From positions 2,184 through 66,183 of the forward strand of contig LDIX01000005.1 of assembly GCA_001468925.1 (NCBI GenBank): DNA of 64,000 nt, read 5' to 3'. Position numbers and translations under genes: made by a program. Below are positions 13,117 to 54,825 of this stretch, piece by piece (positions within the stretch are counted from its first letter, which is position 1; every line of letters starts with the position of its first letter). This stretch comes from a candidate division TM6 bacterium UASB340 (lineage in GTDB: Bacteria > Babelota > Babeliae > Babelales > UASB340). The notes beneath the pieces are model-generated. The model saw only the letters and a list, made by a program, of their open reading frames with translations, was not told the DNA's origin and did not search any database.

Positions 13117-13848
13117 ATGAAAATAAAAAAAAGATTAGATTTATTAGTTCAAGAAAAATACCCACAATTTACCAGAAATCAAATACAAAGTTGGATTTTG
13201 CAGGGCAAGGTTTTGGTTGATGGTAAAGTTGAAACAAAAGCCGGAACGCAGATCGTTCAAGAGGCTGATGTTTTATTAACTGTTGATGAACCAAAATTTG
13301 TAAGCCGTGCCGGGTTTAAGCTTGAGCATGCTTTGGATCATTTTAATGTCAATGTAAAAGATTTAGTAATTTTGGATGCCGGAATTTCTACCGGTGGGTT
13401 CACCGATTGCATGTTACAACGAGGAGCCAAAAAAATTTATGGAATCGATGTTGGCTTTGGTCAAGTTCATGAAAAGGTTTTACGTGATTCACGTTTGGTT
13501 TTGATGGAAAAAACCAATTTAAGAAATCTTGAACAGCTGCCTGAGTCAGTTGATCTTGTAACTCTTGATCTTTCGTTTATATCTATTTTAAAAGTTTTAC
13601 CGGCAGTAGTTAAACTGTTAAAACCAAGTGGTAAAATTATTACTCTAATTAAACCACAATTTGAAGCAGGTAAAGAGAATGTTGGAAAACATGGTCTTGT
13701 AAAAAGTGACAAAGTACATCAAGAAGTAATTGAAAAGATTAAATTAGGTATGCAAGAATTTGGATTTAAAGCTGTTGGTGTTATTGAATCACCAATTCTT
13801 GGTGCATCAAGTGGAAATAAAGAGTTTTTGGCTTTGTTTGAACGATAA
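13117..13848 (+). CDS. tlyA: TlyA-family rRNA 2'-O-methyltransferase (hemolysin A homologue)
   Basis: S4-like N-terminus RLDLLV...GKVLVDG, SAM-binding DAGISTGGFTDCMLQRGAKKIYGIDVG, and DLSFISI. Confidence 0.9.
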   Translation: MKIKKRLDLLVQEKYPQFTRNQIQSWILQGKVLVDGKVETKAGTQIVQEADVLLTVDEPKFVSRAGFKLEHALDHFNVNVKDLVILDAGISTGGFTDCMLQRGAKKIYGIDVGFGQVHEKVLRDSRLVLMEKTNLRNLEQLPESVDLVTLDLSFISILKVLPAVVKLLKPSGKIITLIKPQFEAGKENVGKHGLVKSDKVHQEVIEKIKLGMQEFGFKAVGVIESPILGASSGNKEFLALFER

Positions 13849-13947
13849 TAAATATCGACATAGCTTATTGAATATATAAAAAAATCTAATTTTTATTTCA
13901 TCCAAAATCTTAGTTTATCGTTAATTTAATAAAATGTGTGTGGATAA

Positions 13948-14087
13948 GTCATCCCGGGCTTGACCCGGGATCTCTTTTGTATGCATTCACTTTTTTATAA
14001 GTTTTTCTACTTTTTTATCGTAATAGTATTTTATATAGTAAAAGTGAATGTTCGAGAAGGAGATCCCCGATCGTAGTCGGGGATGAC
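13948..14087. mobile_element. gene-less mini-element (MITE-like) with the same hairpin ends as the GIY-YIG unit
   Basis: The ends are 13948-13978 GTCATCCCGGGCTTGACCCGGGATCTCTTTT and 14057-14087 AAGGAGATCCCCGATCGTAGTCGGGGATGAC, in inverted orientation. An inner 11-bp inverted repeat is also present (CATTCACTTTT 13984-13994 / AAAAGTGAATG 14040-14050). There is no ORF inside. Confidence 0.6.
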
Positions 14088-14223
14088 AAACGCATAAAAC
14101 TGATTTTATTGTATGTATGCTTTGAGTGGCAATATGATAGGACTTAAGACCTGTTAAGTGTATTTTATATTTGTGTTCTAAGTTAATTTTGCTTAAACAA
14201 TATTCGTGTTAAAAAAGAAATAA

Positions 14224-14254
14224 GGGCTGCAAAATTTTACAGCCCCTTTTCTTT
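14224..14254. terminator. bidirectional Rho-independent terminator candidate
   Basis: GGGCTG-N10-CAGCCC followed by CTTTTCTTT on the plus strand and a T-run on the minus strand. It lies just downstream of the stop of the minus-strand gene 14276..15244. Confidence 0.55.
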
Positions 14255-14275
14255 AGAAAAACTTATTATTGTTTT

Positions 14276-15244
14276 TTAGTTATTTTCGCCTTTTATTTTA
14301 TCATAAACAAAGGTTAAACCGGTATATTTTGATAAAACTTTTTTACCACGTTCTTTAGCACATTTAAATACAGGTGAAATTATTTCCATGGTAACTGCCG
14401 TTGCTATTGCACTGCCTAAATATTTTGCCCAATTTTCAACCTTGTAATCTTTAAATTCTTTTTCAACAGCACCAAATACATTTTCACGTATTGTGTCGCC
14501 AACTATTTTTGCATCCGACATATCAAAACCGCGATCTGCTATTTCAGATTTTGCTTTATCAAAAAACTTCTTTACATCTGTATCTGTTACTGGAAACATA
14601 TAAAAATATTTATTTAAAAAGTCCAAATTGTCTGCACTTAAATTAGCAAGTTCTCTTGTATTTAAAACTTTGATTAATAATAGTGTTTTTTCTTGAATTT
14701 CTTCGCCAATATTATTAATCATATAATTTTTAATAGCATCCAATTGTGCTTCGTCTTTTAAAACCCAAAACATAGGCGTTTGTGCTTTGTATTCATCTAT
14801 AATTGCTTTGCCTTGGTAATATGTTTCCGGTAAAAATACAGTTTCCAATGCTTTTCCCAAAACAGTATCTCTGTCACCAACATATTTTTTTTGAATTCTT
14901 AAATTTGAAGCATATTTGTTTATAGATTCATTTATTACGGTTATATTTTCTAATTGAACCGGATTTTTAATGTGAGCGTTTTTGCCTGACACTGGATCGT
15001 TATAGCCAAGTTTTAATTTTCTATAAGTATTTATATCCATATCTAAAATTAAAATCTCCGGATCTTTTTCAGTAGCATTTAAAAACAAACAGCCATTGGA
15101 ATAGTTCAAAGCTTTATTTTTAATCTCTTCAATATTTGTTTCAGTAGCACTTATATTTAATGATAACGTACTTAATAACATTAAATATAATAATTTATTT
15201 TTATTCACAAAGAGTCTCCCAAGTAAAAGTTTATAAGATAACAA
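14276..15244 (-). CDS. hypothetical exported protein
   Basis: 322-aa ORF with a signal-like N-terminus and a C-terminal hydrophobic segment. No motif recognised. Confidence 0.5.
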   Translation of the reverse strand: MLSYKLLLGRLFVNKNKLLYLMLLSTLSLNISATETNIEEIKNKALNYSNGCLFLNATEKDPEILILDMDINTYRKLKLGYNDPVSGKNAHIKNPVQLENITVINESINKYASNLRIQKKYVGDRDTVLGKALETVFLPETYYQGKAIIDEYKAQTPMFWVLKDEAQLDAIKNYMINNIGEEIQEKTLLLIKVLNTRELANLSADNLDFLNKYFYMFPVTDTDVKKFFDKAKSEIADRGFDMSDAKIVGDTIRENVFGAVEKEFKDYKVENWAKYLGSAIATAVTMEIISPVFKCAKERGKKVLSKYTGLTFVYDKIKGENN

Positions 15245-37774: not shown

Positions 37775-37937
37775 TTCTGTAAAATAGTTTTGTGTGGGAC
37801 CAGATTCTGAAATCCGACTTATGCATAAAGCTATGGCTGACAAGCAGTATGACAAAGAATTTTGGTTTGAAAGTTTGGATTAAATTGGGGGACGGTCTTT
37901 AGCAACGTTGCTAAATTAAGATTTTACGAAGAAGTGT

Positions 37938-38381
37938 GTCATCCCGGCCGCCGAGCCGGGATCTCTTTCTTGAACTTTCGTATTTAATGCTATAACTATG
38001 AAAATTTATATTGTTTATATTATTACTAATCGGCCAAATGGCATTATTTATGTTGGTATTACCAGTGACCTAAAACGGCGAATGGCTGAACATAAACTTG
38101 GCATAATAAAAGGCTTCACACAAAAATATAAGCTAAAAAAGTTAGTTTATATTGAACAATTTGAGCTTGCCGACGATGCTATTAGAAGAGAAAAACAGTT
38201 AAAGCGTTGGCATAAAAAATGGAAATTTGATTTGATAGAAAAACATAATCCTGAATGGGATGATTTGTCTGAAAAATATTTTAATTCAAATGATATAGAG
38301 TATGATAAATGGATTTTGAATAGAAATATTTATAAGAAGTGAATGTATGAAAAGAGATCCCGGCTCGGTGGCCGGGATGAC
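37938..38381 (+). mobile_element. GIY-YIG gene cassette bounded by 31-nt inverted hairpin repeats (REPtron-like unit)
   Basis: 37938-37968 is GTCATCCCGGCCGCCGAGCCGGGATCTCTTT. The reverse complement of 38351-38381 is GTCATCCCGGCCACCGAGCCGGGATCTCTTT, which is 30/31 identical. Each end is itself a GC-rich hairpin. Confidence 0.6.
37998..38342 (+). CDS. GIY-YIG (URI-domain, COG2827-like) nuclease family protein
   Basis: YIVYIITN...GIIYVGITSDLKRRMAEHK...REKQLKRW carries the GIY/YIG, catalytic Arg and Glu motifs of small stand-alone GIY-YIG proteins. Confidence 0.85.
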   Translation: MKIYIVYIITNRPNGIIYVGITSDLKRRMAEHKLGIIKGFTQKYKLKKLVYIEQFELADDAIRREKQLKRWHKKWKFDLIEKHNPEWDDLSEKYFNSNDIEYDKWILNRNIYKK

Positions 38382-44690: not shown

Positions 44691-44852
44691 CAAAAACTGT
44701 ATTTTCTTAATTTTCTTTTTTTTATATTTTATTTTATATAATCTGTTTAAATAATATGAATTAGATAGTGTGTGTTTATAATAAAAAATTTATTATAAAT
44801 AATACAAACGTGAGAATTAATTTTTAGCAAAAAGCAGTTTTGCGCTGTGCGA

Positions 44853-44982
44853 GAAGGGCGATAGCCCTTCGCTACCACAGTAACGCCATGCCAGAGGCAG
44901 GCTTTTTTGTTTTTTATAATAAATTCGAGTTAGCCCACTTCAGATGGGCGATATTGGGTTAGCGAACGGCTATCGCCGTTCG
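44853..44982. repeat. structured GC-rich repeat family 2, copy A (MITE-like, long hairpin-containing inverted ends)
   Basis: The left end is GAAGGGC-GATA-GCCCTTC GCTACCA...GCCATGCC-AGA-GGCAGGC. The right end, reverse-complemented, is CGAACGGC-GATA-GCCGTTC GCTAACC...CGCCCATCTGAAGTGGGC. An AT-rich spacer lies between them. Confidence 0.6.
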
Positions 44983-45013
44983 AGATACAAACGTAGTAAA
45001 CGCTAGGAAAATT

Positions 45014-46837: not shown

Positions 46838-46942
46838 TCAGTTATTTATAAATCATCAAAAAATATTTTTAATTGAATTTATAGTTTTATATAATCTATG
46901 TTCATATAAAAAACTTATTATTTATTTTAATTGGGGATGGTT

Positions 46943-54657: not shown

Positions 54658-54675
54658 TAAAAATCCACCAAATTC

Positions 54676-54812
54676 GGAAGGCGATAGCCTTCCTCTACCA
54701 TAATATCGCCATGCCACTGGCAGGCTAATTTGTATTACGTAATAAATATTATTTCAAACGAGCCCACTTTAGATGGGCGACAGTAGGTTAGCGCAATGCT
54801 ACCGCTTTGCGC
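54676..54812. repeat. structured GC-rich repeat family 2, copy B
   Basis: GGAAGGC-GATA-GCCTTCC TCTACCA...GCCATGCC-ACT-GGCAGGC ... GCCCA-CTTTAGA-TGGGC ... GCGCAATGC-TACC-GCTTTGCGC. It is collinear with copy A, and the stems differ by compensatory changes. Confidence 0.6.
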
Positions 54813-54825
54813 GGATTATTGTAGT

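Follow-up and report, generated by a model that had tools for sequence, protein, structure and literature searches.

A head-to-head pair of Ssn-related hairpins downstream of tlyA in a Dependentiae (TM6) genome, probably derived from two truncated ssn right ends

The 64,000-nt stretch of DNA analysed here (the window) has a GC content of about 27%. Between tlyA and the convergent ORF at 14276-15244 it carries a gene-less inverted pair of GC-rich 31-nt hairpins (13948-14087), referred to here as the mini-element. Elsewhere in the window, similar hairpins bracket a small GIY-YIG gene, a homolog of ssn, and a further degenerate copy stands by itself. The hairpins resemble the Ssn-related motif (SRM), and the features on which the analysis draws are as follows.

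13854-14214, no strand assigned: window-specific segment holding the mini-element, replacing 20 bp of the relatives
13948-13978, plus strand: left SRM hairpin, GTCATCCCGGGCTTGACCCGGGATCTCTTTT; an 8-bp ssDNA hairpin in the fold, matching the published SRM pattern
13979-14011, minus strand: left-arm subterminal segment, reverse complement of the right end of an ssn unit
14012-14025, no strand assigned: central junction TTTTTATCGTAATA between the arms, where right-end homology (to L127 and to the window's own unit) stops
14026-14056, plus strand: right-arm subterminal segment, an apparent ssn 3′-end remnant plus the spacer TTCGAGAAGG
14057-14087, minus strand: right SRM hairpin, AAGGAGATCCCCGATCGTAGTCGGGGATGAC; found by the core pattern, the ssDNA fold and the published SRM pattern
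14222-14247, no strand assigned: ancestral bidirectional terminator hairpin of tlyA and the convergent gene, outside the mini-element and retained in the window
37938-37968, plus strand: left SRM of the ssn unit; a core-pattern match within a 32-nt inverted repeat that is 97% complementary
37998-38342, plus strand: ssn homolog encoding a 114-aa single-domain GIY-YIG protein (PF01541, E = 4.9e-18)
38351-38381, minus strand: right SRM of the ssn unit, 8 nt past the stop codon; found by core pattern and inverted repeat
51604-51639, minus strand: degenerate solo SRM (core pattern with 2 mismatches) at the right edge of a 4.8-kb island

The mini-element is laid out as a left arm (13948-14011), the 14-nt junction and a right arm (14026-14087). 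The left hairpin has the tag (A)GTC, the stem ATCCCGGG/CCCGGGAT closed by the loop CTTGA, and the tail CTCTTTT. The right hairpin, which reads (T)GTCATCCCCGACTACGATCGGGGATCTCCTT on the minus strand, is built of GTC, the stem ATCCCCGA/TCGGGGAT and a C, so that GTC stands 5′ and C stands 3′ of the palindrome in both arms, as the oriented flanks of an SRM do. The original prediction for this locus described 13948-13978 and 14057-14087 as inverted ends enclosing an additional inner inverted repeat, and all of these are present in the sequence as described, the inner repeat being 11 nt long (CATTCACTTTT at 13984-13994 and AAAAGTGAATG at 14040-14050). Its statement that the tail CTCTTT is fixed does not hold, as the right arm ends in CTCCTT. 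When a 156-nt region with the mini-element was folded as ssDNA, the energy was −25 kcal/mol compared to −11.5 ± 2.9 in shuffles (z = −4.7), and the fold consisted of the two terminal hairpins and an inner stem.

Ssn proteins are small single-domain GIY-YIG nucleases (CDD cd10448) that bind their hairpin solely as ssDNA and cut a few nucleotides upstream of it; SsnA has been characterised in Neisseria and Wolbachia (Chenal 2025, PMC11893778). The same study gives the Neisseria hairpin as the NTS, CGTCATTCCCGCGMAVGCGGGAATCYRG, with the SRM as its general form, and reports that 42% of ssn homologs are SRM-flanked on both sides (PMC11893778). The ORF at 37998-38342 is arranged in this way, bracketed by the hairpins at 37938-37968 and 38351-38381, and AGTGAATGT (38338-38346) covers its TGA stop codon (38340-38342). 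PF01541 accounts for residues 4-76 of the 114 and no other domain was found in the protein. Its Y7, Y18 and E65 are one residue off the catalytic Y6, Y17 and E64 of SsnA, so that the protein combines a small size and a single GIY-YIG domain with the catalytic Tyr, Tyr and Glu of the Ssn family. Searching PDB sequences with the 114-aa protein returned weak UPF0213 matches only, and NCBIfam gave no family above cutoff and no specific model for it. SRM-flanked ssn homologs were also found at the loci L037, L047, L053, L009, L126 and L127. By homology to the published enzymes, the 114-aa protein is presumed to be the cognate enzyme of the hairpins.

The public annotation of 37998-38342 gives an 86-aa product (P0002) that starts from Met29 and is missing the GIY motif; the 114-aa length of the ORF is backed by the full-length 114-aa homologs P0001 and P0071. 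The inverted repeat of the ssn unit (37963-38000 in the window, L127:24-70) runs beyond the hairpin as CTCTTTCTTGAAC, in which a −35-like TTGAAC is present, with TATAAC 15 nt downstream and an ATG 1 nt after that. Because of this arrangement, transcription of ssn may start within the left end of its own unit and possibly yield a leaderless mRNA. A perfect palindrome of 18 nt, TTTAGCAACGTTGCTAAA, is located at 37898-37915, 22 nt upstream of the left hairpin and at the left edge of the window-specific insertion around the ssn unit.

Using the core pattern GTCATCCC-N12-GGGATCTC, four matches were found in the 64-kb window and 0.00 in 100 shuffles of it. The left arm is skipped by this pattern because its interior is 11 nt, and hairpin copies in the 64 kb number five when the degenerate solo is included. 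The published SRM search pattern, HGTCWYN(0-2)YYVSBRHN(0-5)WNVSBRGN(0-2)RNCYNB (PMC11893778), matched only twice in the 64 kb, at the two arms of the mini-element, where 0.01 matches were expected from 100 Markov simulations. This strict regex gave no match at either ssn-flanking hairpin or at the solo copy, and these carry the GTCATCCC...GGGATC core that they have in common with the arms. Three copies have TGTC as their tag, and the left arm has AGTC.

Repeats of similar build have been catalogued as CGTC-tagged REPs, which have a CGTC or TGTC tag, an 8-9 bp stem beginning with A-T and then T-A, a 4-5 nt loop and a short tail, and which are found mostly as head-to-head dimers in many genomes (Di Nocera 2013, PMC3733652). 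They include Neisseria dRS3 and Rickettsia RPE-4 and RPE-6, and were described as ‘apparently lacking a dedicated transposase’ (PMC3733652). The window copies, with stems of 8-9 bp starting AT and loops of 4-6 nt, have this architecture. Judged by its motif, the mini-element hairpin is an SRM, equal to a CGTC-tagged REP, and so is of an already published kind, seen here in Dependentiae.

A second copy of the 140-bp dimer form was found neither in the 64-kb window nor in one metagenome scan. That scan used a pattern for the right-end arm type (GTCATCCC-N-GGGATCTC-N-CATTCACTT) and produced one uninformative match, on a contig that lacks an ssn gene and carries ORFs resembling clpX, folA and thyA. 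Viral contigs scanned with the SRM pattern yielded 4 matches only and therefore give no sign of a viral vector. With Rfam, the whole window at the gathering threshold returned a tRNA only, and a permissive scan of 13800-14300 returned sub-threshold noise only.

To look at the hairpin in other bacteria, one genome per species was scanned with the pattern GTCATCCC-N10-13-GGGATCTCTTT, which matched at least 119 loci in many phyla. The matches listed come from Bacteroidota, Fibrobacter, Treponema, sphingomonads, Rhodobacterales, Acidobacteriota, Patescibacteria, Rickettsiales and a TM6 bacterium, among other sources, and many of them are head-to-head pairs 40-70 bp apart. A GIY-YIG homolog is encoded in 4 of the at least 119 eight-kb loci listed and adjoins hairpins in each. 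The 10-13 interior bases are unconstrained by the pattern, and so the 94 distinct interiors from the matches listed are an independent test of stem pairing. At stem levels 1-3, which extend ATCCC/GGGAT, 60, 62 and 85% of these 94 interiors form Watson-Crick pairs; with shuffled partners the proportion was about 30%, and the observed values were not attained in any shuffle. The stems of the 94 interiors make use of all four pair types, and their main non-Watson-Crick class is tandem G.A/A.G. Tandem G.A/A.G pairs are stable in DNA hairpins, often together with GCGAAGC-type loops. The original prediction took stem differences between copies as a sign of selection on the hairpin and proposed a covariation test; stems covary strongly across the at least 119 loci listed, and structural selection on the hairpin stem is supported. 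This fits the published finding that structure and sequence both matter.

One of the loci, in Roseivirga spongicola (L009:41-806), holds a BIME-like array of two alternating SRM subtypes, spaced about 200-260 bp apart. The subtypes are ATTCCC...GGGAAT, which is NTS-like, and ATCCCC...GGGGAT, and an ssn homolog lies 0.8 kb away.

Ends were compared from the tag inward, the arms being set against the window's ssn unit and against L126 and L127. The latter are homologous units from other assemblies (77% and 78% aa identity, respectively) that have the same SRM ends; DNA outside their hairpins is unrelated, and the conserved unit is therefore bounded by the SRMs. Their right end runs ...TATAAAAAGTGAATGT, then 8-10 nt, then AGAGATCCC. 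The subterminal 32 nt of the left arm are identical to the window's own ssn right end at 26 of 32 positions and are not really similar to its left end. The left arm is also identical, after CATTCA, to the L127 right end at 21 of 23 positions with one 1-nt indel, and this match runs about 23 nt into the 3′ coding sequence of ssn (...S R K I Y K K stop). Across AAAGTGAATGTTCGAGAAGGAGATCCCC, the right arm matches the L127 right end, AAAGTGAATGTTCAAGAAAGAGATCCCG, at 26 of 28 positions. Besides the spacer, the left arm appears to have kept the stop codon, present at 13987-13989 as TCA, the complement of TGA, together with about 7 codons left over from the 3′ coding sequence of ssn, in which there is a 1-nt frameshift; in the right arm, the ssn 3′-end remnant includes the inner-repeat copy AAAAGTGAATG (14040-14050), with TGA at 14045-14047. 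The central 14-nt junction has no homology to ssn units.

These alignments indicate that both arms are truncated right ends of ssn units, each consisting of the SRM, a spacer of about 10 nt, the stop codon and the last ssn codons. By the same alignments, the inner inverted repeat corresponds to the ssn stop-codon region present on both arms. Since the arms belong to two different right-end subtypes, the element is a heterodimer. It had been suggested that the inner arm resembles the right end of the GIY-YIG unit and that the mini-element looks like two right ends joined head to head. The resemblance is stronger than was claimed and is true of both arms, and the head-to-head arrangement of two right ends is borne out by the alignments to the window and L127 right ends.

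Three close relatives in the Dependentiae (GCA_018897535.1, GCA_022013625.1 and GCA_018896115.1) are 94-97% identical to the window and collinear with it. In blastn comparisons, no gap interrupts the alignment over the 4737 and 3975 bp that flank the tlyA-downstream site, and the spacer at the site is 86 bp in the relatives compared to 427 bp in the window. The core insert spans approximately 13854-14169 (316 bp), and the gained segment overall is 316-361 bp. Three outgroup lineages, whose TlyA proteins are 92%, 85% and 81% identical, have the same synteny as the window (htrA-tlyA followed by ORF-lptFG) and spacers of 76, 79 and 41 bp. Like the spacer of the close relatives, each of these holds only a terminator hairpin, bidirectional in the outgroups, and no SRM. 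Counterparts of the terminator hairpin at 14222-14247, with covarying stems, are found in all relatives and outgroups, and no SRM was found in about 80 kb of the relatives' and outgroups' loci. Because the relatives and outgroups are empty and the window has kept the old terminator, the SRM-bearing segment is derived and not ancestral. The original prediction had pointed to this region as one where related genomes should differ, and the 140 bp are indeed missing in the 94-97% identical relatives and in the three outgroup lineages; the site is not ancestral and static, and the segment was gained in the window lineage.

The position of the terminator downstream of tlyA (14222-14247 and the spacers of L120, L135, L137 and L140) is kept in five Dependentiae lineages. 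Changes in its stems across these lineages (AAGGGCTAC.., GAAGGCCCTGC.., AAAGGCTGC.., AAAGGGCC..) are fully compensated.

The serS-hemW region was aligned pairwise between the window and the relatives, and the ssn unit is absent there in the relatives, with 64 bp between the two genes compared to 702 bp in the window. At both sites, the extra DNA continues beyond the hairpins: next to the mini-element by about 94 bp (left) and 82-127 bp (right), and next to the ssn unit by 42-146 bp and 77 bp. Comparing these window-specific flanks with the window and with Ssn proteins (blastn-short, tblastn) gave nothing beyond chance and no ssn remnant. Neither the mini-element nor the ssn unit nor the leucine-rich-repeat island described below showed a target-site duplication, and the longest word shared by the mini-element flanks is 8 nt, the shuffled mean being 7.8. 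Since the indel junctions lie off the hairpin termini and there is no target-site duplication, insertion of the 140 bp as a unit is not demonstrable; acquisition by recombination with neighbouring DNA, or through several successive events, is equally possible. The earlier description of the mini-element as a non-autonomous derivative stands in so far as it is a gene-less derivative with the ends of the GIY-YIG unit, while the implied mobilisation in trans does not follow from a gain of 316-361 bp with no target-site duplication.

Other DNA in the window is also missing from the relatives. A 4.8-kb island (46850-51642) contains leucine-rich-repeat-like tandem-repeat genes with periods of 84, 87 and 144 bp; in the relatives, which lack it, the ends of the DNA ligase and superoxide dismutase genes are separated by 4 bp. 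The solo SRM at 51604-51639 is located at the right edge of the island with its tag facing outward, and the alignment to the relatives resumes within a few nucleotides of the tag, at a junction made ambiguous by an A-rich stretch. A second, unrelated family of GC-rich mini-elements is represented at 44847-44985 and 54668-54816, each copy being about 140-150 bp long with four hairpins, covarying stems and TIR-like ends (GAAGGGCGATAGCCCTTCGCTACC / GGTTAGCGAACGGCTATCGCCGTTCG); this family has no match in Rfam. Both copies are absent from 95%-identical relatives and both are flanked by 10-nt exact direct repeats, which is above shuffle expectation. At the 54.7-kb copy, the repeat is inside an imperfect duplication of about 19 nt, through which the two convergent genes have their 3′ ends restored. 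Homologous halves of this second family adjoin ssn units elsewhere (L126:418-500 and L127:590-680).

We consider it probable that the 140 bp are a head-to-head SRM dimer made of two truncated ssn right ends, gained in this lineage and, by homology, a target of Ssn. Under this reading, when replication, repair or DNA uptake exposes either strand as ssDNA, the arm 5′-GTCATCCC...GGGATC would fold into a hairpin of 8-9 bp. The 114-aa GIY-YIG protein (37998-38342) would then bind the folded arm, as its homology to the Neisseria and Wolbachia SsnA proteins suggests, and would nick the ssDNA on the 5′ side of the GTC tag, a few nucleotides away from it. Since the hairpins are paired head to head, the predicted nick falls just outside the element on each strand. 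The dimer would in this way be both an extra gene-less target site and a derivative of the ssn unit, and it could have effects like those in Neisseria, where incoming or exposed ssDNA may be trimmed and recombination around the site modulated.

It is possible, although we think it rather unlikely, that the mini-element is an inert relic, formed when one internal deletion in two head-to-head ssn units (5′ ends facing) left only their right ends, and is now decaying debris. Such an origin could account for arms of two different right-end subtypes, the unrelated 14 nt at the centre, the frameshift in the left-arm coding remnant and the extra window-specific DNA on both sides, as well as for a dimer that is single-copy in the 64 kb with no other in the metagenome scan. 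However, both hairpins are intact and fit the SRM consensus, and there is no detectable ssn remnant in the flanks. Head-to-head dimers are moreover the predominant and recurrent organisation of CGTC REPs in many genomes (PMC3733652), and this recurrence argues for a regular process over an accident.

A function at the RNA level, with the hairpin pair acting as a bidirectional intrinsic terminator or stabilising the mRNAs of tlyA and the ORF at 14276-15244, seems quite improbable and would be secondary at best, given that the window still has the ancestral terminator and that SsnA ignores RNA. In all relatives and outgroups, termination relies on the separate conserved hairpin that the window has kept at 14222-14247, so that the new element is not required for it. 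SsnA is reported not to bind RNA (PMC11893778), the T-run lies outside the general NTS/SRM consensus, and no Rfam family matches. This has to be set against an RNA fold of −60.6 kcal/mol (z = −7), the location of the element between convergent genes, and a left arm that fits a simple terminator consensus on the plus strand, with an 8-bp GC-rich stem followed by CTCTTTTGT; REPs in general are also mostly downstream of genes (PMC3733652). Lastly, a classical MITE, that is, an internally deleted insertion sequence moved by a DDE-type transposase, would likewise be small and intergenic, have terminal inverted repeats and be present or absent between relatives. We find this barely credible, given that the sole gene bracketed by these ends encodes a GIY-YIG nuclease, that the ends are hairpins with covarying stems, that the insertion junctions are 82-127 bp outside the repeat termini, and that the flanks, with a longest shared word of 8 nt against a shuffled mean of 7.8, contain no target-site duplication.

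Returning to the mini-element as a probable Ssn-targeted dimer of ssn right ends, its interest lies in the history of the repeats. The origin and spread of CGTC-type repeats (Neisseria dRS3/NTS and Rickettsia RPEs, among many others) have been open since the enzyme-less catalogue of 2013 (PMC3733652), and the 2025 Ssn paper tied such repeats to a GIY-YIG ssDNA nuclease, noting the IS-like SRM-ssn-SRM architecture and the analogy to REP/RAYT and leaving mobility as a hypothesis (PMC11893778). Our literature search found no later paper on the Ssn/SRM system and none on that system in Dependentiae. The arms still carry the ssn stop codon and last codons and are thereby direct evidence that dimers like this derive from the ends of ssn units, and the empty sites in three relatives and three outgroups show a recent gain in a lineage of the obligate intracellular type (Dependentiae). 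The coding remnants in both arms and the well-polarised filled and empty site are what is new here, and the overall picture of the system is unchanged. A more far-reaching proposal, which we regard as doubtful, is that right-end inverted dimers are a propagating non-autonomous form of ssn, analogous to REPINs, with Ssn mobilising them and the right end alone needed in cis. If true, Ssn would be the mobilising enzyme that has long been missing for CGTC REPs, dRS3 and RPEs, and this would be the first GIY-YIG-driven DNA transposition system in bacteria. The 140-bp copy with its coding remnants would then be an early intermediate toward the compact 70-90 bp dimers of other phyla.

Among known systems, REPIN/RAYT is similar in outline, as both have an inverted hairpin pair as a gene-less element and a single-copy gene bracketed by those repeats, and both combine recognition of hairpins in ssDNA with the lack of a target-site duplication. 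The enzyme is a GIY-YIG nuclease here and an HUH/Y1 transposase (IS200/IS605-like tyrosine) there, the tag is GTC as opposed to GTAG, and mobility has been shown for REPINs and not for SRMs. With a flanked GIY-YIG gene and a GTC tag, the window system does not belong to REPIN/RAYT and the likeness is one of analogy only. CGTC REPs are closer, sharing the (C/T)GTC tag, the 8-9 bp stem with A-T and T-A as first pairs, the short loop, the short unpaired tail and the head-to-head dimer form. They differ in that the window repeats bracket a GIY-YIG gene, as in Chenal 2025, whereas no enzyme was reported in PMC3733652, and in that their tail is CCA and that of the window copies CTC. The window dimer is also long, its 140 bp being due to the roughly 30 nt of unit-derived sequence kept in each arm. 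CGTC REPs form families of tens to thousands of copies per genome, and 5 copies were counted in the 64 kb read here. The system differs from published Ssn/SRM systems in its host, a Dependentiae (TM6) MAG with a GC content of about 27%, in the 20-aa C-terminal extension of the protein (114 aa compared to 94 aa in SsnA), in the low copy number (5 in 64 kb) and in a dimer that keeps ssn coding remnants. A role in natural transformation has been shown in Neisseria and is not known to apply to the window system. The window system has the same small single-domain GIY-YIG gene bracketed by inverted hairpin repeats and the same gene-less copies scattered in intergenic DNA, and its motif, (T/A)GTCATCCCGG...CCGGGATCTC compared to the NTS CGTCATTCCCGCGMAVGCGGGAATCYRG, has the same GTC tag, the same palindrome starting AT(T)CCC and the same C right after the palindrome.
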